From NCBI GenBank assembly GCA_045589535.1, contig JAZNPE010000048.1, forward strand, positions 17,237 to 81,236: a stretch of DNA of 64,000 nucleotides, given 5' to 3'. A program made the position numbers and the translations under genes. Below, in pieces: positions 31,475-56,743 of the stretch (position 1 is the first letter of the stretch; each line of letters starts with the position of its first letter). The notes under the pieces were generated by a model. It was not told where the DNA came from. It saw only the letters and a program-made list of their open reading frames with translations, and made no database searches. Origin of the DNA: Acutalibacteraceae bacterium. GTDB taxonomy: Bacteria > Bacillota > Clostridia > Oscillospirales > Acutalibacteraceae.

Positions 31475-32695
31475 TTATCTGATGCCGTAATTTTCGATGA
31501 TGTAGTCCATATCCTTGTCGCCTCTGCCTGAGAGGTTGATAAGCACTGAACCGTGATCCATTCTCTCTGCAAGCTTCATACCGTATGCAACAGCGTGTGA
31601 GCTTTCAATTGCAGGAATGATACCCTCAAGACGTGAAAGCTTGAAGAATGCATCAATTGTTTCGTCATCATTGATAACATCATACTTAACCCTACCGATT
31701 TCCTGAAGGAAAGCGTGTTCAGGACCTGATGACGGATAGTCAAGTCCGCTTGCGACAGAATAAACCGGTGCCGGCTCACCGTATTCGTCCTTAAGCATAA
31801 TGCTGTTGAAGCCGTGCATAATGCCCTCTGTGCCGTACTTAAGGCTTGCCGCGTGGTCGCCGAGCTTCTCGCCTCTGCCGAGAGGCTCTATGCCGTAGAT
31901 ATTAACAGGGTCATTGAGGAAGCCTGCAAAAAGACCTGCCGCATTACTGCCGCCGCCGACACAAGCTACGATCGCATTCGGAAGATGACCTGTCATTTCG
32001 ATAAATTGTTCTCTTGCCTCGATACCTACAACACTCTGGAAATCACGTACCATCATCGGAAACGGATGAGGTCCAAGAACTGAGCCGATACAGTAAATAG
32101 CGTCGTTATATTCCTTGCTGTATGCATCAAAAGCCGCGTCAACAGCCTCTTTAAGGGTCTGAAGACCGTGTGTTACCTCAACAACATTTGCGCCGAGAAT
32201 CTTCATTCTTGCAACGTTCGGAGCCTGTTTTTTGATATCAACAGAGCCCATGTAAATATCACATTCAAGTCCGAAATATGCCGCCGCAGTTGCAAGGGCA
32301 ACACCGTGCTGACCTGCGCCTGTTTCAGCAATAACCTTTTTCTTACCCATATATTTTGCAAGAAGAGCCTCACCCATACAATGGTTGAGCTTGTGAGCAC
32401 CTGAGTGGTTAAGGTCCTCACGCTTTGCATAAAGCTGTACTTTTCCGCCGAGCGCATCCGAAAGACGCTCAAGGTGTGTTACGGGAGTCGGTCGGCCCTG
32501 GAACTCCTTACGGATTCTGCGAAGCTCAGCAATAAACTTTCTTGACTGACAGATTGAATAGTAAGCCTCTGTTGTTTCAGCCATAGCTGCTTTGAGCTTA
32601 TCGTCAACAAATACTCCGCCGTATTTGCCGAAATATCCGTTTTTATCGGGGTAGTTATTAAAATAAGTATCAAAATCAATTCCGTTGAGTTTCAT
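31475..32695 (-). CDS. trpB: tryptophan synthase beta chain, stand-alone
   Basis: TrpB sequence ([27 protein letters not shown]). Start set at the second ATG (MKLNGIDF), behind GGAGGAA. No trpA is adjacent. Confidence 0.85.
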
Positions 32696-32799
32696 AATAA
32701 ATTCCTCCATAAGTTAAGATTATAATATTTTCGGTTCAGACTGAGCTTCGCCATCGTTTTGTAAGCAATACCATAATCTTCCTCCTGAAATAGTCTTTC

Positions 32800-33086
32800 T
32801 GACAAAAACAAAACGTCCCTGACAGAATTACTTAATCTGTCAAGGACGAATAAAACTTATCCGCGGTGCCACCTTGTTTCACGGGTTACCGTGCACTTTC
32901 AGAATACTGACATATTCCTGCCAACTAACGTATGGCTGACGTTGCAGAATACTTTGCGTTACGCATTTGACTGCACCCTCCGCGGTCCATTTGACGAAGT
33001 GTTTCTTACCTGATTTTCAGCATCGCAGGCTCTCTGTAAAGGCATCATCGCCGTTATCTCCGCATCAACGGTTTAACTTTAAATTT
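32800..33086 (-). promoter_or_regulatory. T-box riboswitch leader, Trp specifier (UGG at 32987-32989)
   Basis: Minus strand shows an AGAGAG bulge motif, a GCTGAAAA distal loop and the specifier AAA-UGG-A just before the lower helix. The T-box motif GGTGGCACCGCGG is at 32861-32873. The terminator CGTCCTTGACAG...CTGTCAGGGACG is followed by TTTTGTTTTT (32801-32848). Confidence 0.8.
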
Positions 33087-41776: not shown

Positions 41777-43708
41777 ATGAACTACACAATCGCGCAGAAA
41801 ATCATTAAAAATCACCTGCTTTCGGGCGATATGACCGTGGGCAGTGAAATCGGTCTAAGAATTGACCAGACTCTCACTCAGGACGCTACAGGTACAATGG
41901 CTTATCTTGAGTTTGAGGCTATGGGAATTGAAAGAGTCAAAACTGAGCTTTCAGTTGCTTATATCGATCACAACACGCTTCAGACAGGCTTTGAAAATGC
42001 TGATGATCACCGTTTTATCCAGAGTGTTGCAAAGAAGAGAGGTCTTCGCTTCTCACGTCCGGGTAACGGAATCTGCCATCAGGTACATCTTGAGCGTTTC
42101 GGAGCCCCCGGCAACACACTTATCGGCTCTGACTCACACACCCCAACAGGTGGCGGTATCGGTATGCTTGCAATGGGTGCAGGCGGACTCGACGTTGCTG
42201 TTGCTATGGGCGGCGGCGCATACTATATTACTATGCCGAAAATGGTAAGAGTTAACCTCACAGGCAAGCTTTCACCGTGGGTTGCCGCAAAGGACATTAT
42301 CCTTGAAGTTCTCCGCATTATGTCCGTTAAGGGCGGTGTCGGGAAGATTGTTGAATACGGCGGAGAAGGTGTCAAAACACTTTCAGTTCCCGAAAGAGCT
42401 ACAATCACAAATATGGGTGCTGAGCTTGGTGCTACAACATCAATCTTCCCGTCAGACGACATCACACGTGAATTCCTTAAAGCTCAGGGCCGTGAAAAAG
42501 ATTGGATTGAACTTTCAGCTGATGAAGGTGCAGAATACGATGAGGTTATCGAAATTAACCTTTCAACTCTCGCTCCCCTTGCAGCTATGCCTCATATGCC
42601 CGATAACGTTAAAAAGGTTGAAGAAATCGGCGAAATCAAAGTTGACCAGGATTGTATCGGTTCCTGCACAAACTCTTCACTTATGGATATGCTCAAGGTT
42701 GCGGCTATTCTTAAGGGTAAGACCGTTTGTCCGTCGGTAAGCCTTTCAATCGCTCCGGGTTCAAAGCAGGTTCTCAATATGCTTGCTCTCAGCGGTGCAC
42801 TTTCAGACATGATTGATGCCGGTGCAAGAATCCTTGAGTCAGCCTGCGGTCCGTGTATCGGTATGGGTCAGTCACCCAACTCGGCAGGTGTATCACTTCG
42901 TACATTCAACCGTAACTTTGAAGGCCGTTCAGGTACTGCAGATGCAGGTATCTACCTTGTAAGCCCCGAGGTTGCAGCGGCATCAGCTCTTACAGGTGTG
43001 CTTACAGATCCTCGCAAGCTCGGCGAAATGCCTGAAATTGAAATGCCTGATGAATTCATCATCAACGACAATATGATCGCGATGCCCGCAGCAATTGAAG
43101 ATGCTGACAGCGTTGAGATTATGTACGGCCCGAACATCAAGCCTTTCCCGAAGACAGAGGCTCTTCCGGAAGAAATTACAGCAAAGGCTGTTCTCAAGGT
43201 CGGCGACAATATCACAACAGACCACATCATGCCTGCAGGCGCAAAGATCCTCCCCTACCGTTCAAACATCCCGTTCCTTTCAAACTTCTGCTTCAAGCAG
43301 TGTGACGAGAAATTCGCAGAGCATTGTAAGGAAGCAGGCAAAGGTATCATCATCGGCGGTGCTAACTACGGTCAGGGTTCTTCAAGAGAGCACGCGGCTC
43401 TTGTTCCGCTTTACCTCGGAATCAAGGCTGTTGTTACAAAGTCTTTCGCACGTATCCATTGTGCAAACCTTGTTAACGCAGGTATTATTCCGTTCACATT
43501 CAAAAACGAGGCTGACTACGATAAAATCAGCGTAAATGACGATCTTTGCCTCGCAAACATCCGTGAAGCTATTGCAAACGGCAGTGAGGTAACACTCAAA
43601 AACATCACAACAGGCGAAGAGTATGCTCTTGATTATCAGCTTTCTGAGCGTCAGAGAGATATTATCCTCGCAGGCAGCCTTCTTGACTACACAAGAGAGA
43701 ACTCATAA
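41777..43708 (+). CDS. acn: aconitate hydratase
   Basis: 643 aa. Aconitase motifs (IDQTLTQDATG, GSDSHT, IGSCTNSS, CGPCIG, GANYGQGSSREHAA). Confidence 0.9.
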   Translation: MNYTIAQKIIKNHLLSGDMTVGSEIGLRIDQTLTQDATGTMAYLEFEAMGIERVKTELSVAYIDHNTLQTGFENADDHRFIQSVAKKRGLRFSRPGNGICHQVHLERFGAPGNTLIGSDSHTPTGGGIGMLAMGAGGLDVAVAMGGGAYYITMPKMVRVNLTGKLSPWVAAKDIILEVLRIMSVKGGVGKIVEYGGEGVKTLSVPERATITNMGAELGATTSIFPSDDITREFLKAQGREKDWIELSADEGAEYDEVIEINLSTLAPLAAMPHMPDNVKKVEEIGEIKVDQDCIGSCTNSSLMDMLKVAAILKGKTVCPSVSLSIAPGSKQVLNMLALSGALSDMIDAGARILESACGPCIGMGQSPNSAGVSLRTFNRNFEGRSGTADAGIYLVSPEVAAASALTGVLTDPRKLGEMPEIEMPDEFIINDNMIAMPAAIEDADSVEIMYGPNIKPFPKTEALPEEITAKAVLKVGDNITTDHIMPAGAKILPYRSNIPFLSNFCFKQCDEKFAEHCKEAGKGIIIGGANYGQGSSREHAALVPLYLGIKAVVTKSFARIHCANLVNAGIIPFTFKNEADYDKISVNDDLCLANIREAIANGSEVTLKNITTGEEYALDYQLSERQRDIILAGSLLDYTRENS

Positions 43709-43719
43709 GGAGAATTACA

Positions 43720-44889
43720 ATGACAGAATTACAGATTAAAAATGCAGTAGAAAAATTTGAAGCTCTTATGCGCGAGCAGAGCGACCGTTCAGATGCTATC
43801 AAGGCTCAGGGCGATTTTGTTGATTTCGAAAAGCTTGATAAAATCATCATCGGCGTTTGCGGCGGTGACGGTATCGGTCCTGTTATTACAAAGGAAAGCG
43901 CAAGAGTTCTTGAATATATGCTTGCCGATAAGGTTGCGTCAGGCAAGGTTGAATTCAAGGTTATTGACGGTCTTACAATTGAAAACCGTGTTGCGGCCAA
44001 CAAGGCTATCCCCGATGACGTTCTTGAAGAGCTCAAGGCTTGTCACGTTATCCTCAAGGGACCCACAACAACACCGCAGGCAGGCGATCCGTGGCCGAAC
44101 ATTGAAAGCGCAAACGTTGCAATGAGAAAGGCTCTCGACCTTTTTGCTAACCTCCGTCCCGTTAAGGTTCCCGACGAGGGTATCGACTGGACATTCTTCC
44201 GTGAGAACACAGAAGGTGCTTACGCTGTCGGCTCAAAGGGCTTCAATGTAACAGACGACCTTGCAGTTGACTTTGTTGTTACAACCACCGAGGGTACTGA
44301 AAGAATCGCAAAGCTTGCATATGATTACGCAAGAAGAAACAAGAAAGACAGAGTTTCAATCATTACAAAGGCAAACATCATCAAGACAACTGACGGTAAA
44401 TTCCTTAACCTTTGCAAAAACATCGGTAAGGATTATCCTGAAATCACAACTGATGAATGGTATATCGACATCACAACAGCAAAGCTTATCGACCCGAAGC
44501 GCCGCAAGGACTTCAAGGTATTCGTTCTTCCCAACCTTTACGGTGATATCATCACAGACGAAGCTGCTGAATTTCAGGGCGGCGTAGGCACTGCAGGCAG
44601 TGCAAATATCGGTAAGAGATACGCTATGTTTGAAGCTATCCACGGTTCAGCTCCCCGAATGATGCGTGAAGGCAGAGGTCAGTACGCTGATCCTTGCTCA
44701 ATGCTCCGTGCTACAGTTATGCTTCTTTCTCACATCGGTGAGCAGGAAAGTGCAGACTTGCTTGAAAGAGCACTTGACATCTGTATGTATGAAGAAAAGA
44801 AGCTTCAGATTACAGGCCGTGACACAGGCTGCACTTGTGAAGAATTCGGCAACTACGTTATGGAAACAGTTAAAAAACTCAGAGCATAA
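43720..44889 (+). CDS. icd: isocitrate dehydrogenase (isocitrate/isopropylmalate dehydrogenase family)
   Basis: 389 aa. Contains FRENTEGAY and NLYGDIITDEAA family motifs. Adjacent to aconitase. Confidence 0.7.
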   Translation: MTELQIKNAVEKFEALMREQSDRSDAIKAQGDFVDFEKLDKIIIGVCGGDGIGPVITKESARVLEYMLADKVASGKVEFKVIDGLTIENRVAANKAIPDDVLEELKACHVILKGPTTTPQAGDPWPNIESANVAMRKALDLFANLRPVKVPDEGIDWTFFRENTEGAYAVGSKGFNVTDDLAVDFVVTTTEGTERIAKLAYDYARRNKKDRVSIITKANIIKTTDGKFLNLCKNIGKDYPEITTDEWYIDITTAKLIDPKRRKDFKVFVLPNLYGDIITDEAAEFQGGVGTAGSANIGKRYAMFEAIHGSAPRMMREGRGQYADPCSMLRATVMLLSHIGEQESADLLERALDICMYEEKKLQITGRDTGCTCEEFGNYVMETVKKLRA

Positions 44890-44913
44890 ATACCATTATA
44901 GGAAGGATTTATT

Positions 44914-45564
44914 ATGCCAAAAGAGAAAAAGGATATATCAATGTCCGTAATCAAGCGTCTGCCGAGATATTACAGATTTCTCGGTGAGCTTAAAAAGAAG
45001 AATATTTCAAGAATTTCATCACGTGAGCTTTCACAGATGATGGGATTCACGGCATCACAGATAAGACAGGATCTTAACTGCTTCGGCGGTTTCGGTCAGC
45101 AGGGATACGGCTATAACGTTGACCAGCTCCGCACTGAAATCGGTTCTATCCTCGGTGTCGGCAACGGGTTCAAAACAATTATTATCGGTTGCGGTAACCT
45201 CGGTAAGGCTATCGCCGCACATATGGCTTTTGAAGACAGAGGATTTGAGCTTGTAGGTATTTTCGACAAGAGATCTGAAGAAATGCAGGATATCAGAATC
45301 AAGGGTATTTCCATCTCCCCTATTGAGGACCTTGAGATTTACTGCAAAGAGGTTGAGCCGATTGTTGCCGTGCTCTGTACTCCGACACTCGCAACTCCCG
45401 AAATTGTTGACAGACTTATAGACTTAGGTATCACAAATTTCTGGAACTTCAGCCATTACGATATCAATTCAGTTTATCCTAAGGCAAATGTTGAAAATGT
45501 TCATCTTAACGACAGTCTTATGACACTCAGCTATCAGATTACAAATAACGGTGGTGCTGAATAA
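44914..45564 (+). CDS. rex: redox-sensing transcriptional repressor Rex
   Basis: 216 aa. Contains VIKRLPRYYRFL, SSRELS...ASQIRQDL and a Rossmann motif IIGCGNLG. Confidence 0.9.
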   Translation: MPKEKKDISMSVIKRLPRYYRFLGELKKKNISRISSRELSQMMGFTASQIRQDLNCFGGFGQQGYGYNVDQLRTEIGSILGVGNGFKTIIIGCGNLGKAIAAHMAFEDRGFELVGIFDKRSEEMQDIRIKGISISPIEDLEIYCKEVEPIVAVLCTPTLATPEIVDRLIDLGITNFWNFSHYDINSVYPKANVENVHLNDSLMTLSYQITNNGGAE

Positions 45565-46322
45565 TGAAAGTTATGACCTTTAATATCCTTTGTCACGGCT
45601 GCGAAGGTCACGATTGGTTTGACCGTCAGAACGACGTCATTGCAACCGTACGCAGATATATGCCCGACATCTTCGGTCTTCAGGAAGCTCATCTTGATTG
45701 GATGAAAGCATTTTGGAAAAATATGCCCGAATATGATTATGTCGGTGTCGGACGTGACGACGGAAAGGAAGACGGTGAATTTTCTCCCGTTTTCTATAAA
45801 AAAGATAAGTTTGACTTCATTGAAGGCAACACTTTCTGGATAAGCGAAACTCCCGATATACCGTCAAGATCCTGGGACACGGCCTGCACGAGGGTATGCT
45901 CTTATGCAAAGCTTCGTGACAAGGAAAGCGGAAACGTTTTTGTCGCAACGAACACTCACCTTGACCATATCAGCGTTGAGGCACGCAAAAACGGTGTTCG
46001 TCTTATCAACGAATTTGCAAAAAACATTGACTGTCCCATCGTTCTCACGGGTGACTTCAACATTCCCGAAAAAACGGACTGCTATCCCGATATGATCGGC
46101 TACGGTATTTTCAGGGATACAAAGTATGTTGCTCCCGTTACTGAGGATACTTTCACGTTCCACGAATTTTTCCACCACAACGGTGAAAGGTCGGTTATCG
46201 ACTTTGTGTTTATAACAGAAGGCTTCAACGCTTTGGTATATCAGGTTGTACAGGATAAAATAGACGGTGCGTTTCCGTCTGACCACTGTCCCGTTATTGC
46301 TGAAATTGAGTTTAATAAATAA
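45564..46322 (+). CDS. endonuclease/exonuclease/phosphatase (EEP) family protein
   Basis: 252 aa. Contains MKVMTFNI, LQEA, THLDH, GDFN and SDHCPV motifs. ATGA-type overlap with the rex stop. Confidence 0.75.
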   Translation: MKVMTFNILCHGCEGHDWFDRQNDVIATVRRYMPDIFGLQEAHLDWMKAFWKNMPEYDYVGVGRDDGKEDGEFSPVFYKKDKFDFIEGNTFWISETPDIPSRSWDTACTRVCSYAKLRDKESGNVFVATNTHLDHISVEARKNGVRLINEFAKNIDCPIVLTGDFNIPEKTDCYPDMIGYGIFRDTKYVAPVTEDTFTFHEFFHHNGERSVIDFVFITEGFNALVYQVVQDKIDGAFPSDHCPVIAEIEFNK

Positions 46323-46326
46323 GCAT

Positions 46327-46357
46327 AAAAACCTCAGGTTGTAACCTGAGGTTTTTA
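46327..46357 (+). terminator. rho-independent terminator of the acn-icd-rex operon
   Basis: AAAACCTCAGGTT-gt-AACCTGAGGTTTTT directly after the stop. Confidence 0.75.
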
Positions 46358-46502
46358 CTTTGTTATGATAAAAACTTAAATATTCAGATTATTTTAATCA
46401 CCCGGAACGAAAGATAAAAAAAGATGATTGAAAACATATGGGGTTTAAAAATATTCGGTTGCACCATGTGACATCAGGGTGTTGTTTTCATCATTTATCT
46501 TA

Positions 46503-46544
46503 TAAAAAGTTTAAACTCCGTAACGCGGTTGCATTACGGAGTTT
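46503..46544 (-). terminator. terminator of the oxidoreductase operon
   Basis: Minus strand AAACTCCGTAA-N10-TTACGGAGTTT followed by AAACTTTTT. Confidence 0.55.
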
Positions 46545-46550
46545 GTTTGA

Positions 46551-47093
46551 TTATTCAGCGTAGTCGTAGCCTGACCTGATAGCTGTTTCGTTAACACCGA
46601 GAAGCTCGATCTTACGTGCAGAAACAACCTTTTTAAGAGCTGCATCAACATTATCAAGAGAGAAACCGTCAACTTCCTTGAGGACCTTACCCGTGATAAT
46701 CATATTTGCAAGAGTCTTGATGTTATTATCATATGCCATCTGTGTTGCAGGGATATAATAAACATCAACATCTGTTCTTTCAACCTTCTTATCAATAAGA
46801 GTTGAGTCAACAAAAATCTTGCCGCCGCTTACAACAGCGTTTTCATATTTCTCAAGCGAAGGAAGGTTCATTGCGATAAGTACATCGGGAGCGTCAACAA
46901 TCGGAGAACCGATCGGCTCATCACTGATGATAACTGAACAGTTAGCTGTACCGCCGCGCATTTCGGGACCGTATGACGGGAGCCAACTTACCTGCTTATC
47001 TTCAATAAGTCCTTTGTATGCAAGGAATTTTCCTGCAAAGAGGATACCCTGTCCGCCGAAGCCTGCAAAAAGCAATCTGCATGTCTTACTCAT
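46551..47093 (-). CDS. 2-oxoacid:ferredoxin oxidoreductase, gamma subunit
   Basis: 180 aa. Contains [12 protein letters not shown] and [10 protein letters not shown] motifs. Confidence 0.85.
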
Positions 47094-47845
47094 TTTGCTT
47101 GCTCCTCTGCATAGATATCTTTATACACGCCGAGAGGATAATACGGAAGCATCTTCTCGTCTACCCATTCGAGTGCCTTTTCAGGAGTCATACCCCAGTT
47201 TGTCGGGCAAGTTGAAACAACCTCGATAAGAGAGAAGCCTTTGCCTTCAAGCTGGTTCTGGAAAGCCTTTTTGATAGCCTTCTTTGCGTTCTTAACGTTC
47301 TTTACGTTATTAACAGCAACACGCTCAAGGTAAGCTGCGCCGTCAACATTTGAAAGGAGTTCACAAACCTTTACGGGATAGCCTACTGTTTCAACATCTC
47401 TGCCGTAAGGTGAAGTCTGTGTAACCTGACCCGGAAGAGTTGTCGGAGCCATCTGGCCACCTGTCATACCGTAGATTGCGTTGTTTACGAAAATAACAGT
47501 GATATTTTCTCTTCTTGCTGCTGCATGTACGGTTTCAGCTGTACCGATAGCTGCAAGGTCACCGTCACCCTGATATGTAAATACGATCTTTGAAGGATCA
47601 CTTCTCTTAACACCTGTTGCAACTGCGGGAGCACGTCCGTGTGCAGCCTGAACAAAGTCACATGTGAAATAGTTATATGCCATAACAGCACATCCAACGG
47701 GCGCAACACCGATTGTATCGCCCTCGATGCCGAGCTCGTCAATAACTTCCGCTACAAGGCGGTGGATAATACCGTGTGTACAACCCGGGCAATAGTGAAG
47801 CACTGCATCTGTGAGTGCCTTCGGCTTTTCAAATACTACTGACAT
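47090..47845 (-). CDS. 2-oxoacid:ferredoxin oxidoreductase, beta (TPP-binding) subunit
   Basis: 251 aa. Contains CPGC.HG, GDGD and [10 protein letters not shown]. Confidence 0.85.
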
Positions 47846-48912
47846 CAGAACGCACCTCCGTTCTCGTTAACTTCATTGATTTTTGCAAGTACCTCTTCAG
47901 GTGTGGGAATCATACCGCCGACACGGTTGCAGAGGTAAACAGGCTTCTTGCAACGGATTGCAAGTTCAACGTCTTCGATCATCTGACCCATGCTCATTTC
48001 AACACAGATGAATGCCTTGCACTTATCTGCTGCAGCTTCAAGAACCTTCTTCGGGAAGGGCCATACTGTGATAGGTCTGATCATACCGACCTTAACGCCG
48101 TTTGCACGAGCTTCATTGATTGCATTCTTAGCAACACGTGAAGTAATACCAAAAGCAACAACGCAAACTTCTGCATCGTCCATAAGGTACTCTTCGTACA
48201 TAACTTCGTTTTCTTCGATTGCCTTATATTTCTCATATCTTTCGAAGTTCTTGATTTCAAGCTCTTCGGGTTTAAGATAAAGTGAGTTTACAATATTATG
48301 TTCACGCTCACACTTTGTACCTGTAAGCGCCCAGGGCTTCTCATATTTTGTAACTTCACCAATATCAAGAGATACAGGCTCCATCATCTGACCCATTGTA
48401 CCGTCAGCAAGGATCATTGAAACCATGCTGTATTTATCTGCAAGGTCAAAAGCCTTTACTGTAAGGCTTGCCATTTCCTGAACTGAAGAAGGAGCGAGAA
48501 CGATGTTTCTGTAGTCGCCGTGTCCGCCACCCTTTGTTGACTGGAAATAGTCAGACTGTGAAGGCTGGATACCGCCGAGACCGGGACCACCTCTCTGAAC
48601 ATTGACAACAACAGCAGGAAGGTCGCAACCTGCAAGGTATGAAATACCCTCAGCCTTAAGAGAAACTCCCGGGCTTGAAGATGATGTCATAACTCTTTTA
48701 CCTGTTGATGCAACACCGATTACCATATTGATAGCAGAAACTTCACTTTCAGCCTGAAGAAAAGTTCCGCCGATTTTCGGCATACGCTTTGCCATATAAG
48801 CCGCAACTTCTGTCTGCGGTGTGATGGGATAGCCGAAGTAATGATGACAGCCTGCCTGAATAGCAGCTTCAGCAATAGCTTCGTTACCCTTCATAAGTAC
48901 TTTTTCTGACAT
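47845..48912 (-). CDS. 2-oxoacid:ferredoxin oxidoreductase, alpha subunit
   Basis: 355 aa. Starts [27 protein letters not shown]. Confidence 0.85.
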
Positions 48913-48919
48913 TATTTTT

Positions 48920-49126
48920 TCACCTCTCTACCGTAATTACACAATCAGGACACATTGTTGCACAGAATGCGCAACCGATGCACTTTTCAGGCTCAGTTAC
49001 TTCTGCGGGGTGATGGCCCTTCGCATTGAGCTTTGTTTCTGACAGTTTAACGATACCTTTCGGACAAGCGCCGACGCAAAGGCTGCAGCCCTTGCAAAGG
49101 TCTGTTTTGAATGTTACTTTTGCCAT
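48920..49126 (-). CDS. 4Fe-4S di-cluster ferredoxin (delta subunit)
   Basis: 68 aa with two CxxCxxCxxxCP motifs. Confidence 0.85.
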   Translation of the reverse strand: MAKVTFKTDLCKGCSLCVGACPKGIVKLSETKLNAKGHHPAEVTEPEKCIGCAFCATMCPDCVITVER

Positions 49127-49140
49127 AGCTTTTACCTCTC

Positions 49141-49803
49141 TTAGTTTATCTTTTCCTGTAGTCTGAGTGGCATTAAATTCTCCACTTTGCCGTACAGATT
49201 ATTATACAACTTTTCATCTACGGTTGTCAACCTCACTGGAATACCCGTAGCCTTTGAAACCTCATTTGCATAGTCGAGAGAATCAAGAACATCCTGTGCC
49301 GTTGTTTCCTCACCTATGTTAGAATTGTTAACGATTGCCGTGAATTTCATTGAGCATGCAGCTTCAATTTCCGCCATAACTTCAAGAGTGCTTTCAACAT
49401 CCCTTGTGAGAGGTCGGTACATATTGATTACCATAAACATCTCGTAGTTATTCTCTTTTTTTAGGCTGTCAGCATAACGTCCGAGGGCATATGCTCCCCT
49501 GTCATCGCCGCCGATGTCCATAACGGCATACTCTGTATTATTATCAACAATGGAATAAACATCCTGCGGCAAAGCCGGAAGGTCGACGTTTGAGCTTGCA
49601 TACTGAGAAGAAATAAGCCTGATTCCCGCTTCAGTCAGTTCTTTTTCGCTGTCTTTTGTTCGGAAATACGGATTAACGATATCAAGATCGGCAATTACTA
49701 CGGGTTTTCCGTCTGCTCTGAGTTTAAGAGCATAATTGACCGCAATATTTGTCTTTCCGCTTCCGTAATGACCTGCAAAAAGTGTTACTCGCTTTGATTC
49801 CAT
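49141..49803 (-). CDS. MinD/ParA/CooC-like P-loop ATPase
   Basis: 220 aa. Deviant Walker A GHYGSGKTN and DLDIVNP. Confidence 0.55.
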   Translation of the reverse strand: MESKRVTLFAGHYGSGKTNIAVNYALKLRADGKPVVIADLDIVNPYFRTKDSEKELTEAGIRLISSQYASSNVDLPALPQDVYSIVDNNTEYAVMDIGGDDRGAYALGRYADSLKKENNYEMFMVINMYRPLTRDVESTLEVMAEIEAACSMKFTAIVNNSNIGEETTAQDVLDSLDYANEVSKATGIPVRLTTVDEKLYNNLYGKVENLMPLRLQEKIN

Positions 49804-49816
49804 TGTATCACCTCTT

Positions 49817-52084
49817 TTAAAGCTTATTTCTTATGATCTTTCCGCTGATAGTCTTCGGAAGCTCTGTTCTGAATTCGACTATTCTCGGATACTTGTAAGG
49901 TGCTGTATGCTCCTTAACATATTTCTGGATTTCCTTCTTGAGTTCTTCCGTAGGCGCTGTGCCCTTTGTAAGAACGACGCTTGCCTTTACAACCTGACCT
50001 CTGATTTCATCGGGTGCAGCCGAAACACCGCATTCAAGAACATAAGGAAGCTCCATAATAACATTTTCAATTTCGAACGGTCCGATACGGTAACCGGATG
50101 ACTTGATAACGTCGTCAATTCTGCCGACATACCAGTAGTAACCGTCTTCGTCTGCCCACGCTGTATCACCTGTATGATAATAACCGTCATACATAACATC
50201 GTTGGTTGCTTCTTCGTTGAGATAATATCCGATAAACAAACCGCAAGGCACCTTGTCACTTGTTCTGATACAGATTTCGCCGGTCTCACCGAGATCTGCC
50301 GGTGTTCCGTCCGGACGGAGAATCTGGATATCGTAAAGCGGAACAGGTTTACCCATTGAACCGGGCTTCGGATTCATACCTGTAAGATTTGCAATGGAAA
50401 GCGTTGTTTCGGTCTGTCCGAAGCCCTCCATAAGCGTAAGTCCCGTTGCGTTATAGAACTGTTTGAATACTTCGGGGTTCAGAGCCTCACCGGCAACTGT
50501 TGCGTGCTTGATGGAGCTGAGATCGTACTTGCTGATATCCTGCTTGATAAGCATTCTGTACATTGTCGGAGGTGCACAGAATGTTGAAATCTGATACTTT
50601 GCGAACAACGGAAGGATATCTGCAGCATCGAAACGATCGAAGTCATAGGTAAAGATTGAGCCTTCGCAGAGCCACTGACCGTAGAGTTTACCCCAGAGTG
50701 CCTTACCCCAACCTGTTTCGGAGATTGTAAAGTGAAGTCCGTCCTTGCTTACACAATGCCAGTACTTAGCAGTAATGTAATGACCGAGAGGATATTTATA
50801 GCTGTGTGTTGCGATTTTGGGATAACCCGTTGTACCTGATGTAAAAAGCATAAGCATCGGGTCGTCACCGCACGGTGAATCCTCTTCTCTTCTGTAACGA
50901 CGGCTGAAAAGGCAATACTCTTCGTCGAAGTTATGCCATCCCTCTCTTGTGCCGTTAACAATAATTTTATTTTTAAGTGTTCCTGTTACTGCGTCTGCAA
51001 GCTCAGCCTGTCTTGCCGTGTCGCCGTCTGCTGTACAGATGATTGTTGAAACGTTTGCCGCCTTGAATCTGTATTCAAAGTCATGCTGAACAAGAAGATT
51101 TGTTGCAGGAATTGCAATCGCACCGATTTTATGAAGACCAAGGATTGCAAACCAGAACTGATAATGACGCTTCATAACAAGCATTACAGTATCACCCTTC
51201 TTGATACCGAGTGACCTGAAATAGTTTGCAGCCTGGCTCGAATGCTCTTTGATGTCTTTATAAGTGAAGATTCTTTCGTTCTTATCCTTATCAAGGTGAA
51301 TCATAGCACGCTTGTCAGGTGACTTTCTGCCGATGTTATCCACGATATCAAAAGCAAAATTGAAAGTATCTGCATTATTGAAATCGATTGAAACGAGGTT
51401 TCCGTTTTCGTCCTCAACAGCATCAATGTACTTTTCGCATACAAGACTGCCCGAAGTTTTTGTGCCCTTGACTGCTCTGTCGTGAACAATCTTTTCAACA
51501 GGTTCATCGGTTGCCATGATCATCGCAAGGAAAACGCAGTCTCTGCCTTCAACAGCAATCATACCGTGAGGTGTTGAGCTGTTGTAGTAAATGCTGTCAC
51601 CCTCTTCAAGGATTTCCTCATGGTTACCGATTCTGACCTTGAGCTTACCGCTGATAACAAGGTCAAACTCCTGACCTGCATGAGTTGTTGTATGAATCGG
51701 CTGATTTTCAAGCTCAGCTGAATACTCGTAACGTACCATATACGGATCCGAAAGTCTTTTTCTGAATTTCGGAGCAAGGTTTTTGATTTCGATACCGTTT
51801 TCACTTGCAGTCGTCTGACCCTTGCCCTTTCTTGTTACCGTATAAGATGTAAGAACGGCACTGTGTCCTTCAAGAAGGTCAGTAAGACCGATATCAAAAG
51901 CAAGAGCACACTTATGCACAAAAGTAAACGGAAGATCTACTTCTCCTGCTTCATAAACATTATACTGTTCAACAGATACTTCTGTTTTTTCAGCCATTTC
52001 TTCTACACTGAAGCCGCAGATATCGCGCATTTCCTTAATTCGCTGTGCAACCTCGTAGAGCTTATTTGTTGTGTTGTTTTCCAT
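49817..52084 (-). CDS. fusion protein: XRE HTH, cupin and AMP-forming acyl-CoA synthetase
   Basis: 755 aa. N-terminal HTH (LYEVAQRIKEMRDICGFSVEEMAEKTEVS), cupin (GDSIYYNSSTPHGM) and AMP-binding motif LFTSGTTGYPK. RBS AGGAGG. Confidence 0.75.
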   Translation of the reverse strand: MENNTTNKLYEVAQRIKEMRDICGFSVEEMAEKTEVSVEQYNVYEAGEVDLPFTFVHKCALAFDIGLTDLLEGHSAVLTSYTVTRKGKGQTTASENGIEIKNLAPKFRKRLSDPYMVRYEYSAELENQPIHTTTHAGQEFDLVISGKLKVRIGNHEEILEEGDSIYYNSSTPHGMIAVEGRDCVFLAMIMATDEPVEKIVHDRAVKGTKTSGSLVCEKYIDAVEDENGNLVSIDFNNADTFNFAFDIVDNIGRKSPDKRAMIHLDKDKNERIFTYKDIKEHSSQAANYFRSLGIKKGDTVMLVMKRHYQFWFAILGLHKIGAIAIPATNLLVQHDFEYRFKAANVSTIICTADGDTARQAELADAVTGTLKNKIIVNGTREGWHNFDEEYCLFSRRYRREEDSPCGDDPMLMLFTSGTTGYPKIATHSYKYPLGHYITAKYWHCVSKDGLHFTISETGWGKALWGKLYGQWLCEGSIFTYDFDRFDAADILPLFAKYQISTFCAPPTMYRMLIKQDISKYDLSSIKHATVAGEALNPEVFKQFYNATGLTLMEGFGQTETTLSIANLTGMNPKPGSMGKPVPLYDIQILRPDGTPADLGETGEICIRTSDKVPCGLFIGYYLNEEATNDVMYDGYYHTGDTAWADEDGYYWYVGRIDDVIKSSGYRIGPFEIENVIMELPYVLECGVSAAPDEIRGQVVKASVVLTKGTAPTEELKKEIQKYVKEHTAPYKYPRIVEFRTELPKTISGKIIRNKL

Positions 52085-52111
52085 AAAATTACCTCCTTTT
52101 TTGTGACTTTG

Positions 52112-52408
52112 AGGAAATAAAAAACCGTCTCAAAGTCTTTAAAAACTTTGAGACGGAAAATAAAATCCGCGGTACCACTCAAATTGCACTCAGCTATTGC
52201 TTTGTGCCACTCATCAGGGTCAGCCAACCCCTTAACACTAACGTAGTCATACGGAAGAAACTATTTGCACTAAGCTTTCATCTCTTCGGCTCAGAAGTGA
52301 TAGGTTATACCCGCCCGAAACTGTCGGTCTCGCACCATCCGCCGACTCTCTTGAAGTTTCAAAAACGTAACCGTCTTCGTCACAGCCTTTATAAACAATT
52401 ACTTGTTG
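52112..52408 (-). promoter_or_regulatory. T-box riboswitch leader, probable Ile specifier (AUC at 52299-52301)
   Basis: Minus strand shows the CAAGAGAG AG-bulge motif, a GGTGCGAG distal loop, and U-AUC-A just before the lower helix CTTC/GAAG next to a TGA...GA K-turn. The T-box motif GTGGTACCGCGG is at 52167-52178. The terminator CCGTCTCAAAG...CTTTGAGACGG is followed by TTTTT (52115-52156). Confidence 0.75.
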
Positions 52409-52414
52409 CGATAC

Positions 52415-52443
52415 ATTATAAACTTATTATACATCATTTTCAA
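52415..52443 (-). promoter_or_regulatory. candidate internal promoter ahead of the Ile T-box
   Basis: Minus strand TTGAAA, 17 nt spacer, TATAAT. A second overlapping TATAAT lies 11 nt upstream. Confidence 0.45.
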
Positions 52444-52488
52444 GATACAGTTTGTAATTTATTCATTACATCTTGTAATATATGATGT

Positions 52489-54996
52489 TTATGCGGTTAC
52501 AACTGAATTTGCTTTCTGCAAGCCGTATTTTTCAACAGCCATTTCACGCATTTTATACTTAAGAATCTTACCTGCGGCATTCATCGGGAATTCCTTGACG
52601 AAGTCGATATACTTCGGCACCTTGTGCTTAGCCATATGGTCAAGAACATACTGCTTCATTTCTTCAACAGTCATCTCCTCGCCCTCATGAAGGATGATAC
52701 AAGCCATAATCTCTTCACCGAGACCCTCATCAGGCACACCGATAACCTGGACATCCTTGACTTTATCGTGCGTATAAATAAACTCTTCTATTTCCTTCGG
52801 ATAGATATTCTCACCGCCACGGATAATCATATCCTTAAGTCTGCCCGTAATCTTGAAATTACCGTCGGGGGTTCTGCAAGCAAGGTCACCCGTATGAAGC
52901 CAGCCGTCCTTATCGATAGCCTCAGCAGTAGCCTTCGGCATCTTGTAGTATCCCTTCATAATGTTGTAACCTCTTGCAACGAATTCACCGTTGACATTAT
53001 CAGGACATTCAAGACCTGTTTCGGGATCGATTACCTTACACTCAATCTTCGGCAAGGCTCTGCCGACTGTTGCAACACGAACCTCAAGCGGGTCATCCGT
53101 ACTTGACATTGTACAGCCCGGTGAAGCTTCCGTCTGACCGTAAACGATTGTAATTTCCTTCATATTCATCTTGTCAACAACTTCGCGCATCTTTGCAATC
53201 GGACAGGGTGAACCTGCCATAATACCTGTTCTGACATAAGAGAAATCTGTCTTTTCAAAATCAGGATGCTGAAGCATCGCGATAAACATTGTCGGAACGC
53301 CGTGGAAAGCAGTAATTCTTTCATTATTTACACAGGCAAGCGATGATTTGGGCGAGAAATACGGCAAAGGAAGCACCGTACCGCCGTGAGTCATTGTTGC
53401 TGTCATTGCAAGAACCATACCGAAGCAATGGAACATCGGAACCTGAATCATCATTCTGTCCGCTGTTGAAAGATCCATTCTGTCACCGATACACTTACCG
53501 TTATTGACAACGTTATAGTGAGTAAGCATAACGCCCTTCGGGAAGCCTGTTGTACCTGAGGTGTACTGCATATTACATACGTCATCCTTTTTAACAAGAG
53601 ATGCCATACGGTAAACTTCCTCAACAGGTACCTGAGAAGACTTTTCAAGTGCTTCATTCCATGTCATACAGCCTTTCTGCTCATATCCGACTGTGATGAT
53701 GTTACGAAGGAACGGAAGCTTCTTTGAATGAAGCTGTTCACCCGGCTTAAGTGTTTCAAGCTCGGGGCAGAGTTCTGCCATAATCTCGTCGTAGTGAGAA
53801 TCTCTGTAACCCTGTACCATAACGAGAGTATGTGTATCAGACTGTCTGAAAAGGTACTCTGCTTCGTGGATTTTGTAAGCTGTGTTGACCGTTACAAGAA
53901 CTGCACCGATTTTAGTTGCTGCCCAGAATGCGATATACCACTGCGGTACATTAGTTGCCCATACAGCAACGTGAGTACCTGCCTTTACACCCATAGCAAT
54001 GAGTGCACGTGCGAAGGTATCAACGTCGTCACGGAATTCCGAGTATGTTCTTGTATAGTCAAGTGTCGTATATTTGAACGCAAGCTGGTCAGGGAATTCT
54101 TCAACCATTGTGTCAAGAACCTGAGAGAAGGTCTTTTCAATAAGCTCTTCCTTTTCCCATACAAACTTACCTGTTCTTGTTTTATTATAAAAATACTTTT
54201 TATTGCTCTTTGTGCTGCCCATAGCTTCCATAAAGCTTTCATAATGGGTAAGGATGATTTCAAGGTCATCAATCTCGCTCATCCATTCGGGATTCCACTC
54301 AATACAAACGAAACCTGCATAGTTGATTGAGCGAAGAGCATTTGTCATTTCCTCAACAGGGAGCTTACCCTCACCTATGAGAGTGTGTCTGCCGTATTCT
54401 TCAGCATCTGTCATATGCACAAGCTTTACATACGCACCGAGGTTTTTGATTGTCTTCTCGGCATCCTCTCTTGCTTTGAAGAAGGTTTCGTACATATTCC
54501 AGTCTGCGCCTATATAATCGCTTGCAAAGAAGTTGAGAAGCTCGCAGAGCTTGTCTGTATCAGCGTAAATGCCGACAGTTTCAACAAGAAGAACGACGTT
54601 ATTTTTCTCGCAAAGGCTGATTACGTCTGCCATAAAATCAGTAACATAGCTTACTGCATCTTCGTCGTCGCTTTCAGCGTAAACCTTGATGTATGAAACG
54701 TTTATATTTCTTGCAACAGCAACTGCTGCTTCGATTTTTTTCATAACCTCTTGGGCATTTTCTTTGTCTGCAACGTTACAGTCAACATCGATACAGGCAA
54801 TCGCTTTCTTTGCATTGATAAGGGTGCGCTTTGTTACGGATGCCATATCGGGGCTGAAGGGAGAAGCCTTGCCCGAAAAAGCATCTGCCTTGATATCGTG
54901 AATTTCTATTCCTTCATAGCGAAGCTCCTCGGCAATCTTAAGAAAATCGCCAAGACACGATGCTTTATGGAATTTTGTTGAAAAAGCTAAATTCAC
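52489..54996 (-). CDS. fusion protein: xylose-isomerase-like TIM barrel plus AMP-forming acyl-CoA ligase
   Basis: 835 aa. GTG start behind GAGGAGGAA. The N-terminal ~260 aa resemble sugar-phosphate isomerase/AP-endonuclease-2 TIM barrels. The C-terminal part has the YTSGTTGFPKGV AMP-binding motif. Confidence 0.65.
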   Translation of the reverse strand: MNLAFSTKFHKASCLGDFLKIAEELRYEGIEIHDIKADAFSGKASPFSPDMASVTKRTLINAKKAIACIDVDCNVADKENAQEVMKKIEAAVAVARNINVSYIKVYAESDDEDAVSYVTDFMADVISLCEKNNVVLLVETVGIYADTDKLCELLNFFASDYIGADWNMYETFFKAREDAEKTIKNLGAYVKLVHMTDAEEYGRHTLIGEGKLPVEEMTNALRSINYAGFVCIEWNPEWMSEIDDLEIILTHYESFMEAMGSTKSNKKYFYNKTRTGKFVWEKEELIEKTFSQVLDTMVEEFPDQLAFKYTTLDYTRTYSEFRDDVDTFARALIAMGVKAGTHVAVWATNVPQWYIAFWAATKIGAVLVTVNTAYKIHEAEYLFRQSDTHTLVMVQGYRDSHYDEIMAELCPELETLKPGEQLHSKKLPFLRNIITVGYEQKGCMTWNEALEKSSQVPVEEVYRMASLVKKDDVCNMQYTSGTTGFPKGVMLTHYNVVNNGKCIGDRMDLSTADRMMIQVPMFHCFGMVLAMTATMTHGGTVLPLPYFSPKSSLACVNNERITAFHGVPTMFIAMLQHPDFEKTDFSYVRTGIMAGSPCPIAKMREVVDKMNMKEITIVYGQTEASPGCTMSSTDDPLEVRVATVGRALPKIECKVIDPETGLECPDNVNGEFVARGYNIMKGYYKMPKATAEAIDKDGWLHTGDLACRTPDGNFKITGRLKDMIIRGGENIYPKEIEEFIYTHDKVKDVQVIGVPDEGLGEEIMACIILHEGEEMTVEEMKQYVLDHMAKHKVPKYIDFVKEFPMNAAGKILKYKMREMAVEKYGLQKANSVVTA

Positions 54997-54998
54997 TT

Positions 54999-56414
54999 TT
55001 ATTCCTCCTCGTAGGCGATTTTATTAAGTGCGCTTACGTAAGCTCTGATACTTGCTCCGATAACGTCTGTTGAGATACCTGTACCTGAATAGAGCTTACC
55101 GCTTGCTGAGCGAAGCTTAACGAGAGCCGAGCCCATAGCTTCACGACCTTCGGTTACTGACTTAATTTGGAAATCGTCAAGCTCGTAGTGATGTCCGATA
55201 ATATGCTCAATTGCAAGGAATGCTGCGTCAATCGGTCCGTCACCAACGCTTACACCACTCATCGGCTCGCCGTCTTTGAGAAGGCGGATGTTAGCTGTTG
55301 CGGTGATAACGTTACCGCTGTTGATAACATAGCTTTCAATTGTATATGTTGCAGGTACCTGAAGTGCAGTTGAAGCGATGATAGCCTCAAGCTCCTTTGT
55401 GCCGACAAATTCTTTTTTTGCCGCAACACGCTTGAATGCTTCATATACTTTTGAGTTATCCTCTTCGGAAAGATCATAACCAATCTTCTTAACTGCCTTG
55501 ATAACTGTTGAGATTGTATCGTTCTTATCAAGAGTGAGTGATTCTGCATTATCGTTCACACCGTTTTCAAAGGGTGAATTTTCGCTCTTTGTTGTGTTAA
55601 CCATTCTCTTCATCTGGTTAACAACTCTTGAAAGCTCTGTTGTACGGATTTTGCTTGAAACACCGTTTGAATCACCGCGGAGCTTGAACACGTTCATTAC
55701 GTCTTCAATTGATGGGAAGCTGAAACCTTCAACAGTTGTCTTAATCTCTCCTGCTCCTGCGCTGATTGCTGAAAATGCGCAGGCAACAGCCATATTGAGC
55801 TGGTCGCTGAGTTCAACAGAGAAAGTTACATCCTTCATTTCGGGAATATTTTCAAAAACAGCCTTTACGAAATCGTAAATTTCAGACGGCATAATTGTTC
55901 CTTCTGAATCACAGATGTTAATGCGCTTTGCACCTGCCGCGATTGCGGCACGGATTACATCATAGAGGAATTCCTTCTCTGCTCTGATTGCATCCTCAGC
56001 AGAAAACTCAACGTTGTCTGAATATTTCTTACACTCAGCTATAAGTGAAGCAACCATTTCCTTTACAACGGGAGGCTTCTTACCGCATTTATATTCCATC
56101 TGAACTGCAGAAACAGGAACACTTACCTTAAGAGAAGCCTTCTTTGCAGCCTTAACGCTGTTCCACGCTGTTTCAACGCTTTCAGCGGTCATGCCAACAG
56201 GAACACATACTTCAGAATGCTTCATAAGTGACGCGATCGTCTTAATCAAGAGAACATCTGTAGATACATTTTTAATTTCAGGCATTTCAATGCTGTTGAA
56301 ATGTAGCTTATCCATTAGCTTTGCCATTTCAATTTTCTCTTTAAAGCTGAGTGAATGGTCTGCAGAATTTGCACACTCTCTCAATGTTATGTCTGATACA
56401 TGAATCTTTCTCAT
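54999..56414 (-). CDS. 2-isopropylmalate synthase-like protein with substituted catalytic metal ligands
   Basis: About 471 aa from the ATG at 56414, behind AGGAG. Aligns by eye to LeuA, including the C-terminal regulatory domain (GDGPIDAAFLAIE, GISTDVIGASIRAYVSALNKI). However, TLRDGEQ is TLRECAN and HCHND is VELSD. Confidence 0.6.
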   Translation of the reverse strand: MRKIHVSDITLRECANSADHSLSFKEKIEMAKLMDKLHFNSIEMPEIKNVSTDVLLIKTIASLMKHSEVCVPVGMTAESVETAWNSVKAAKKASLKVSVPVSAVQMEYKCGKKPPVVKEMVASLIAECKKYSDNVEFSAEDAIRAEKEFLYDVIRAAIAAGAKRINICDSEGTIMPSEIYDFVKAVFENIPEMKDVTFSVELSDQLNMAVACAFSAISAGAGEIKTTVEGFSFPSIEDVMNVFKLRGDSNGVSSKIRTTELSRVVNQMKRMVNTTKSENSPFENGVNDNAESLTLDKNDTISTVIKAVKKIGYDLSEEDNSKVYEAFKRVAAKKEFVGTKELEAIIASTALQVPATYTIESYVINSGNVITATANIRLLKDGEPMSGVSVGDGPIDAAFLAIEHIIGHHYELDDFQIKSVTEGREAMGSALVKLRSASGKLYSGTGISTDVIGASIRAYVSALNKIAYEEE

Positions 56415-56432
56415 AAATATTCTCCTTATCAT

Positions 56433-56708
56433 AAAAAAATCCCTGAAACACTCTGTGCTTCAGGGACGATAAACAAATTTACCGTGGTACCACCCGGATT
56501 GCTGAAAAACAGCCACTCTTCGGATTCTTTCAAATCCTAAGCTATGATAACGGTGCTTGCCGTGACTCCTTATGCAGTAAAAAACGGTTAGGGAGCCAAG
56601 CTCAGATACGAGACAGCCTAAACTTTCAAATACTGACTTTCACCAGCCGTCAGCTCTCTGCAAAATTACGGAAAAGGCTTAATATCTTCAAAGCTTTTCA
56701 AAAATATT
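56433..56708 (-). promoter_or_regulatory. T-box riboswitch leader, probable Leu specifier (CUC at 56610-56612)
   Basis: Minus strand shows GCAGAGAG, a GGTGAAAG distal loop, and GU-CUC-G before the lower helix TATCT/AGATA next to a TGA...GA K-turn. The T-box motif GGGTGGTACCACGG is at 56482-56495. The terminator TCCCTGAAGCAC...GTTTCAGGGA is followed by TTTTTTT (56433-56466). Confidence 0.75.
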
Positions 56709-56714
56709 GAAAAT

Positions 56715-56743
56715 ATTATATATTTACGTACATTTTTTGTAAA
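56715..56743 (-). promoter_or_regulatory. candidate promoter ahead of the Leu T-box
   Basis: Minus strand TTTACA, 17 nt spacer, TATAAT. It overlaps a weak AT-rich hairpin (56745-56768) after rhaD. Confidence 0.5.

Follow-up and report, generated by a model that had tools for sequence, protein, structure and literature searches.

Introduction

Rumen and gut anaerobes need "isoacids" from which they build valine, leucine and isoleucine, as has been known for about 60 years from the physiology of the 1960s. To our knowledge, the Firmicutes genes of this isoacid pathway have not been pinned down. Here we describe a gene cluster on the minus strand of a 64,000-nucleotide stretch of an Acutalibacteraceae bacterium (GenBank assembly GCA_045589535.1, contig JAZNPE010000048.1, positions 17,237 to 81,236; hereafter the window), in which T-box leaders with leucine and isoleucine specifiers precede genes for acyl-CoA synthetases and for a 2-oxoacid:ferredoxin oxidoreductase (OFOR) of the 2-oxoisovalerate type (VOR, genes vorDABG). 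The classes of the components (T-box, OFOR, acyl-CoA synthetase, aminotransferase) are all known already. The cluster itself would seem to supply the genes, hitherto undescribed, of the pathway known from physiology. Judged from its leaders and gene content, it very probably serves a demand-gated salvage of exogenous branched short-chain fatty acids into branched-chain amino acids. No description of the cluster or of the regulon was found in the openly accessible full-text literature.

Reductive carboxylation of branched acids is cited as long known in rumen organisms in a methanogen genome paper, which infers the pathway from a growth requirement only (PMC2812497). The overall chemistry, proposed here from the genes, and the habitat are those described for rumen bacteria and methanogens that reductively carboxylate isovalerate, 2-methylbutyrate and isobutyrate. 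Unlike the classical physiology, which defined no genes, the cluster provides candidate genes, substrates assigned by T-boxes, and regulation.

T-boxes turn genes on when the cognate amino acid is scarce. The T-box-controlled branched-chain amino acid genes of Firmicutes (ilv-leu of Bacillus subtilis with a Leu CUC specifier, as well as ileS, valS and leuS) share with this locus the riboswitch class, the specifiers, the UGGN pairing, the terminator/antiterminator logic and the purpose, namely more of the cognate amino acid. Unlike in those systems, the controlled genes encode acyl-CoA synthetases and an OFOR instead of a de novo pathway, a tRNA synthetase or a transporter, and three differently specified leaders would converge on a single shared enzyme. 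The four-subunit VORs of archaea and anaerobes have the same delta, alpha, beta and gamma set with the same domains. In contrast to known VORs, the present one shares an operon, predicted to be induced by starvation, with enzymes that activate acids; this setting implies the synthase direction. A dedicated P-loop NTPase gene always precedes it.

Among characterized acyl-CoA synthetases, MacsMa from Methanosarcina acetivorans prefers 2-methylbutyrate, its sole fully converted substrate, and depends critically on Trp259 (PMC10455477), and MbcS favours 2-methylbutyrate and isobutyrate selectively but handles isovalerate very poorly (PMC10026030). The synthetase of the isoleucine module resembles both in its synthetase domain, and it shares with MacsMa the Trp of an AKYW motif and the Gly of a GWGK motif. 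It differs from them by an N-terminal helix-turn-helix (HTH)-cupin extension and by its proposed role in amino-acid synthesis, not lipid priming. Finally, the LeuA-like protein of the leucine module has the TIM-barrel fold and the LeuA_dimer domain of LeuA and citramalate synthase. Unlike these enzymes it has lost the metal ligands and the GERAGN motif, its genomic partner is an acyl-CoA synthetase, and it represents at most the regulatory half of LeuA.

T-box specifiers agree with the class of the downstream synthetase

One genome per GTDB species was scanned for relatives of the HTH-cupin-synthetase of the window, a 755-aa protein whose full-length homologues number in the thousands and bear no annotation beyond "AMP-binding protein". 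Among the species-level genomes of Oscillospirales and Christensenellales at least 589 encoded a relative; they come from human, ruminant, pig and chicken guts. From these genomes 80 loci were fetched, all of them from gut or rumen metagenome-assembled genomes (rumen, caecum, colon, faecal) of Acutalibacteraceae, Oscillospiraceae, Ruminococcus, Faecousia, Christensenellaceae and similar groups. A stem-I covariance model built on 29 leaders yielded 164 hits in a search of all loci. The synthetase genes downstream were classified as orthologues of the window synthetase (at least 66% identity) or as a second paralogue (below 66% identity).

The specifier was AUC (Ile) before 75 of 75 orthologues of the window HTH-cupin-synthetase, GUA or GUC (Val) before 45 of 45 copies of the tandem second paralogue, which is missing from the window, and CUC or CUG (Leu) before 40 of 40 LeuA-like genes, so that specifier and enzyme class agreed in 160 of 160 leaders. 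Three further Val leaders were located at contig ends with no gene left for scoring. Within the stem-I helices 99.3% of the cells were paired, and among 149 distinct leaders 11 of 12 pairs varied in a compensatory manner, in an alignment that was fitted to the model; sliding the partners lowered the paired cells in stem I to 20-48%. A T-box core followed every stem I and read UGGU in 162 of the 163 Ile, Val and Leu leaders. The Rfam model independently recovered two leaders in L001, the locus most closely related to the window, and three in each of the loci L005 and L009. Although descriptions of T-boxes usually give a conserved purine directly after the specifier, 44 of 164 leaders had C at this position, among them 30 of the 75 Ile leaders. 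This comparison supports the view that each acid-activating enzyme is labelled by the T-box for one branched-chain amino acid and that all three enzymes would feed one oxidoreductase.

A sequence-only reading of the window had proposed two T-boxes with the specifiers CUC (Leu) and AUC (Ile), and both were confirmed by a scan with Rfam RF00230 (gathering score 93 bits; Table 1) and by the covariance-model alignment. In that alignment the specifier column contained CUC followed by G in the Leu leader and AUC followed by A in the Ile leader. The stem-I model gave 80.4 bits for the Leu leader and 77.3 bits for the Ile leader. The leader alignments showed the K-turn, the specifier loop, the AG bulge (AGAGA) and the distal loop of stem I, and the T-box core was UGGU in both leaders. 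Terminator hairpins with U-runs were identified at 56467-56439 in the Leu leader (minimum free energy -25.9 kcal/mol, z -4.25) and at 52156-52125 in the Ile leader, and in both leaders the 5' arm of the terminator overlapped the 3' half of the T-box helix. Because the terminator belongs to the minimum-energy fold of both leaders, their default state is predicted to be OFF.

The window contains a third T-box at 33077-32839(-) (98.6 bits), with the specifier UGG and the core UGGC, located 5' of a lone trpB (TIGR00263, 509 bits against a cutoff of 392); leader and gene together occupy 31475-33077(-). With UGG as its specifier and a bona fide trpB behind it, this leader serves as an internal control of the specifier register. 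The discriminator base is A73 in tRNA-Ile, tRNA-Leu and tRNA-Val and G73 in tRNA-Trp, which is fitted by the UGGU cores of the Ile and Leu leaders and by the UGGC core of the Trp leader. That TrpB stands alone here behind a Trp T-box points to indole salvage and not to a full trp operon.

The synthetase classes differ at one position of the catalytic domain

Comparison of the synthetase domain of the 755-aa protein with the Protein Data Bank (PDB) revealed MacsMa (3ETC) at 631 bits over the whole domain, and the AKYW motif (alternate pocket Trp, Trp259 of MacsMa) and the GWGK motif (Gly, in place of the pocket Trp and Val of acetyl-CoA synthetase by our reading) aligned between the two. The best NCBIfam match was MbcS (430.5 bits against a cutoff of 850), which marks the protein as a relative and not as an equivalog. 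The additional ~235 aa at the N-terminus comprise an XRE-type HTH and a cupin. We propose that the 755-aa fusion functions as a 2-methylbutyrate-CoA ligase.

Only seven positions were fixed differently between the Ile-type (81) and Val-type (48) sequences. Five of these class-separating residues were found in the N-terminal HTH-cupin region, and the sole class-fixed position within the synthetase domain was residue 460 of the GW[G/A]K motif, occupied by Gly in 81 of 81 Ile-type and by Ala in 48 of 48 Val-type sequences. MacsMa has Gly at the equivalent position, as the Ile-type does. By our reading, position 460 would match the acyl-pocket Val of acetyl-CoA synthetase. As the bulkier Ala would go together with an acid that is one carbon shorter, this residue looks like a specificity switch.

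In L027, L029, L033, L036, L045, L053, L068, L074, L077 and L078 the second (Ala460) paralogue was located only 40-190 nt after the first, with no Val T-box detected. These loci are of the Faecousia/Oscillospiraceae type, and in them the Ile leader would govern both synthetase genes.

Inverted repeats of the form TTACA-N3-TGTA(A/T), two of which lie just 5' of the Ile promoter (52445-52490(-)), were considered as an operator for the HTH domain and rejected, since such repeats were present in only 1 of 74 Ile leaders. A palindrome and k-mer scan upstream of 160 leaders returned only the -35 box and A/T tracts.

For the leucine module, the sequence-only reading of a TIM-barrel/acyl-CoA ligase fusion was upheld by Pfam as far as the domains are concerned (AP_endonuc_2 at residues 20-236, AMP-binding at 3.1e-90, and AMP-binding_C), and the best NCBIfam match of the 835-aa protein was PRK12583 (685 bits against a cutoff of 832). 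This protein is proposed as a putative isovalerate-CoA ligase. The poor activity of MbcS with isovalerate would explain why a separate, FadD-like synthetase family is present in the Leu module. The barrel itself looks degenerate: it scored 58.6 bits against AP_endonuc_2 (gathering score 31.1) and carries E139, D165, H194 and E233 in the window (ligand positions assigned by motif, not by structure), but the canonical E-D-H-E set was unconserved among relatives, E139 being K in 25 of 44 and D165 being L in 32 of 44 sequences.

In two loci (L067:12263-13210 and L080:12309-13256) the gene of the Ile-type synthetase is separated from that of the Val-type synthetase by a gene for a free-standing xylose-isomerase-like TIM barrel of 316 aa (Pfam, 97.9 bits). 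Motifs of the ENIG, WDIGH and IHAHE type are retained in this barrel, in contrast to the fused domain. It might, speculatively, be an epimerase or tautomerase beside the 2-oxo group of 3-methyl-2-oxopentanoate.

The synthetase, VOR and aminotransferase genes form a conserved cluster

The order synthetase(s), P-loop gene, vorDABG was conserved in 51 of the 80 loci, usually with two tandem HTH-cupin-synthetase paralogues. The LeuA-like/TIM-synthetase gene pair adjoined the synthetase-vor cluster in either orientation. Among the 29 loci of 80 without a VOR, many end at a contig edge and some consist of the synthetase alone with full flanks. Further open reading frames of the cluster were identified as branched-chain aminotransferases (IlvE equivalog NF009897, 495 and 487 bits against a cutoff of 307). 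Such a gene was present within the cluster in 38 of 47 evaluable loci, directly after vorG in 30, after vorG and a carbon-nitrogen hydrolase gene in 4 and between the synthetase and the P-loop gene in 4. L001 has the aminotransferase in its cluster.

No ilv or leu genes were found in the 64-kb window. The genes at 41777-44889 were considered as LeuCD and LeuB and score instead as aconitate hydratase and an isocitrate-type dehydrogenase.

In L021, L025, L030, L071, L044, L078 and L026 the neighbour of the aminotransferase gene encodes a carbon-nitrogen hydrolase (Pfam, 160 bits), and in the first four of these loci the hydrolase gene stands between vorG and the aminotransferase gene. Its best NCBIfam match was a YafV-like amidohydrolase, under the cutoff. 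If this hydrolase were an omega-amidase, it would pull glutamine-dependent transamination toward the amino acid.

The four OFOR subunits are encoded together: alpha (POR_N and PFOR_II), beta (thiamine pyrophosphate (TPP)-binding), gamma (POR) and delta (2x[4Fe-4S]). The alpha subunit matched NCBIfam PRK07119, "3-methyl-2-oxobutanoate dehydrogenase subunit VorB", with 545.6 bits against a cutoff of 399. The beta, gamma and delta subunits matched generic OFOR models with scores under the cutoffs, delta being OorD/OGOR-delta-like by NCBIfam.

The P-loop gene was found immediately 5' of vorD in every locus having vorD. Its product scored 27.9 bits against Pfam CbiA (cutoff 25.4, a marginal match) and contains the conserved motifs GHYGSGKT, DLDIVNPYFR, DIGGDDRGA and NNSNLG. 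An AlphaFold2 (AF2) model (shallow alignment, pLDDT 78) gave Foldseek hits to signal recognition particle GTPases and to ATPase-type HypB at a TM score of ~0.6. A MinD/ParA-type (deviant Walker A) ATPase was rejected, the Walker A motif GHYGSGKT being devoid of the signature Lys of KGGxGK[ST]. A NifH-like or Mrp-like Fe-S ATPase was likewise rejected in view of the absence of conserved Cys residues, the weak PDB sequence hits and the generic SIMIBI matches in Foldseek. Thus, the P-loop of the proposed ATPase was verified and its assignment is refined to a generic SIMIBI NTPase, as judged from motifs and fold; that it matures or assists the VOR is a guess.

A promoter-like site within the P-loop gene (49230-49201) lies 75 nt 5' of vorD and possibly allows T-box-independent vor expression in the window genome. 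It was rejected as a conserved vor promoter: the corresponding site reached 10/12 in L001, and other relatives were at background.

The LeuA-like protein lacks the catalytic residues of isopropylmalate synthase

Translation from 56414, after an AAGGAG site, gives a LeuA-like protein of 471 aa, the same length as its homologues. Pfam identified HMGL-like (2.6e-40) and LeuA_dimer (2.9e-29) domains, and the score was under every NCBIfam LeuA cutoff (best 307.8 against 532 bits). The protein was aligned with three solved isopropylmalate synthases (IPMS). In this alignment DTTLRDGEQ is replaced by DITLRECAN and HxHND by ELSDQ, and GERAGN is deleted; the metal ligands are changed from Asp to Glu and from His-x-His to Glu-x-Ser. 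Among 18 family members the metal-site positions were variable (E/K/V/Q and E/Q/A/C), and the C-terminal LeuA_dimer domain was almost invariant and the most conserved part. An AF2 model superimposed on IPMS catalytic domains with a root-mean-square deviation of 1.5-2.9 Å. The TIM-synthetase gene followed the pseudo-IPMS gene after 5-36 nt in every case with downstream DNA.

The loss of the metal ligands and of the GERAGN motif means that this protein is not a credible IPMS. The gene had been read as LeuA-like, which holds for the fold and the LeuA_dimer domain; the catalytic signatures are gone and the score lies under the LeuA cutoffs. It is probably a pseudoenzyme or sensor, and probably acts as a non-catalytic, leucine-binding partner of the putative isovalerate-activating enzyme.

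Proposed pathway and alternative explanations

In the proposed mechanism, the anticodon of an uncharged tRNA would pair with the specifier and its acceptor end would stabilize the antiterminator, allowing transcriptional read-through. Each acid-activating enzyme would thus respond to its own T-box (CUC for Leu, AUC for Ile and, in relatives, GUA/GUC for Val). In the Ile module, the HTH-cupin-synthetase would convert 2-methylbutyrate to 2-methylbutyryl-CoA, with the P-loop gene and vorDABG cotranscribed. In the Leu module, the TIM-synthetase would convert isovalerate to isovaleryl-CoA, and the dead IPMS homologue with its regulatory domain probably senses leucine. The activation step would cost ATP, which is converted to AMP. 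A single VOR, using reduced ferredoxin and CO2, would turn the acyl-CoAs into 3-methyl-2-oxopentanoate and 4-methyl-2-oxopentanoate, and a branched-chain aminotransferase, encoded in the cluster in most relatives and presumably elsewhere in the window genome, would complete the amino acids. We infer the substrates and the direction of the VOR from several observations. The suggestion of the sequence-only reading that T-box-gated synthetases and a VOR make branched-chain amino acids gains support from the match of specifier and enzyme class for all three amino acids, from the frequent aminotransferase gene, from the substrates of MacsMa and MbcS and from the fit of the Gly/Ala pocket residue. 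Moreover, induction by starvation through a T-box would be counter-productive for a catabolic oxidoreductase.

Several observations weigh against this salvage pathway. The direction of an OFOR is not fixed by its sequence, both synthetases fall under the NCBIfam equivalog cutoffs, and in several loci of the comparative set the synthetase is solitary with no VOR nearby. The aminotransferase gene was not found anywhere in the 64-kb window, where a terminator follows vorG, and the Val-type synthetase is missing as well. About ten loci have the second paralogue but no leader for it. In the window, vor lies behind the Ile T-box only and is not itself controlled by the Leu T-box. Read-through from the Leu module would meet the terminator of the Ile T-box, so that leucine synthesis would need basal vor expression or the unconserved site at 49230-49201. 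Finally, the pseudo-IPMS, TIM, HTH-cupin and P-loop parts are all conserved and yet left unexplained by the pathway model. A second, protein-level control by borrowed parts is conceivable, although we regard it as doubtful: the pseudo-IPMS would be a feedback sensor of the isovalerate-CoA ligase, the HTH-cupin part, which holds five of the seven class-separating residues, would act likewise on the Ile/Val ligases, and the SIMIBI NTPase would mature the VOR or help the uphill carboxylation energetically. If so, an allosteric module would have moved from a de novo to a salvage pathway, and the SIMIBI NTPase would be a new accessory factor for 2-oxoacid synthases.

Four other explanations were weighed against the salvage pathway. 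That the LeuA-like protein is an active, divergent isopropylmalate or citramalate synthase, which pulls VOR-made 2-oxoisovalerate into the leucine pathway, would agree with its IPMS fold and LeuA_dimer domain, with the partial retention of the Arg/Lys of the LRD motif and of the EFSAxDA motif, and with control by a Leu T-box, as often seen for leuA. However, the Asp, His and His ligands are all replaced at positions that vary within the family, GERAGN is deleted, the scores are far under the LeuA cutoffs, and the gene is strictly paired with an acyl-CoA synthetase gene instead of leuBCD, which makes an active enzyme quite unlikely. The synthetases could instead supply branched acyl-CoA primers for membrane fatty-acid synthesis, with the VOR oxidative or unrelated; this is the function in Staphylococcus aureus of MbcS, to which the 755-aa protein has its best NCBIfam match (PMC10026030), and amino-acid shortage would mean primer shortage as well. 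As the sole function this salvage of lipid primers is very unlikely, since vorDABG would be cotranscribed with the synthetase behind a T-box, an aminotransferase gene belongs to most evaluable clusters, an oxidative VOR switched on during scarcity would further drain the amino acid, and three tRNA-specific switches are needless for primer supply. Lipid priming and amino-acid synthesis are not exclusive, and the acyl-CoAs could feed both.

The Ile module might also activate propionate, with reductive carboxylation of propionyl-CoA to 2-oxobutyrate and conversion by IlvBCD to isoleucine; in favour of this, the route from propionate to 2-oxobutyrate is known in some anaerobes. MacsMa adenylates propionate but completes the reaction only with 2-methylbutyrate (PMC10455477), and propionate is a poor substrate of MbcS (PMC10026030). 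The alpha subunit falls within the VorB subfamily, the Ile and Val paralogues differ in the synthetase domain at the single Gly/Ala position, fitting branched acids one carbon apart, and an organism with IlvBCD would have no need of a Val module; propionate as the substrate is therefore highly improbable. Finally, OFORs of similar type yield branched fatty acids in proteolytic clostridia (for example 10.1101/401489), and the VOR could correspondingly oxidize branched 2-oxoacids in amino-acid fermentation, its link to T-boxes being incidental. We consider such a catabolic role almost certainly wrong: AMP-forming synthetases run toward the acyl-CoA, T-boxes induce in starvation, and a match of specifier and enzyme in 160 of 160 leaders cannot be incidental.

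Organization of the locus and neighbouring genes

The single minus-strand gene string read from the sequence proved correct in the domain content of every named gene (Pfam and NCBIfam), and neighbouring genes overlap or lie at most 14 nt apart, thus forming one tight string. The promoters predicted before both T-boxes correspond to near-consensus sigma-70 sites, and TTGACA-type promoters were found ~30-40 nt 5' of the leaders in related loci too. The terminator expected after the oxidoreductase genes was located as a hairpin with U-run just beyond 46551, the start coordinate from which the cluster had been described. The window holds the Leu and Ile modules only; the Val module is missing.

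Table 1. Positions of the genes and regulatory elements of the cluster, in window coordinates
Feature	Position	Strand	Evidence
Sigma-70-type promoter, Leu module	56715..56743	(-)	TTTACA-17-TATAAT, 11/12 consensus
T-box leader, specifier CUC (Leu) at 56612-56610	56459..56700	(-)	Rfam RF00230 94.0 bits, E 2.6e-19
Pseudo-isopropylmalate-synthase ("LeuA-like"), 471 aa	54999..56414	(-)	Pfam HMGL-like + LeuA_dimer
AP_endonuc_2 TIM barrel + FadD-like acyl-CoA synthetase fusion, 835 aa	52489..54996	(-)	Pfam
Sigma-70-type promoter, Ile module	52415..52443	(-)	TTGAAA-17-TATAAT, 11/12 consensus
T-box leader, specifier AUC (Ile) at 52301-52299	52146..52392	(-)	Rfam RF00230 95.0 bits, E 1.4e-19
XRE-type HTH + cupin + MacsMa/MbcS-type acyl-CoA synthetase, 755 aa	49817..52084	(-)	Pfam HTH_19, Cupin_2, AMP-binding, AMP-binding_C
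SIMIBI-class P-loop NTPase, 220 aa, Walker A GHYGSGKT	49141..49803	(-)	Pfam CbiA 27.9 bits
Perfect sigma-70 consensus within P-loop gene	49201..49230	(-)	TTGACA-18-TATAAT, 12/12
OFOR delta subunit, 2x[4Fe-4S] ferredoxin domain, 68 aa	48920..49126	(-)	Pfam Fer4 family
OFOR alpha subunit, VOR-type, 355 aa	47845..48912	(-)	Pfam POR_N + PFOR_II
OFOR beta subunit, TPP-binding, 251 aa	47090..47845	(-)	Pfam TPP_enzyme_C 4.4e-23
OFOR gamma subunit, 180 aa	46551..47093	(-)	Pfam POR 1.3e-32
Intrinsic terminator closing operon	46513..46544	(-)	14-pair stem, -21 kcal/mol, z -7.47, U-run

The plus-strand genes at 41777-46358 encode the aconitate hydratase, the isocitrate-type dehydrogenase, the redox sensor Rex and a member of the Exo_endo_phos family. 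They are convergent with the vor operon, from which a bidirectional terminator (46325-46358) parts them. The position of Rex adjoining a ferredoxin-dependent operon may be a coincidence. A large capsule/polysaccharide synthesis cluster (window 639-27693) and a RACo-like (corrinoid reductive activase) gene (window 29633-31015) are unrelated to the finding.

Significance

The route described here is absent from a large genomic reconstruction of how the human gut microbiome makes amino acids (PMC9026213), and owing to this omission carriers of the cluster may be mis-scored as branched-chain amino acid auxotrophs. The odd parts of the cluster are of interest themselves, namely the HTH-cupin-synthetase fusion, the TIM-synthetase fusion with its pseudo-IPMS, and the VOR-linked NTPase. 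The finding bears on isoacid feed supplements in ruminants, on the consumers of branched-chain fatty acids in the gut and on the engineering of CO2-fixing 2-oxoacid synthases. The T-boxes would act as substrate labels which indicate the amino acid that each synthetase serves, and this makes the pathway of these gut and rumen bacteria directly testable.

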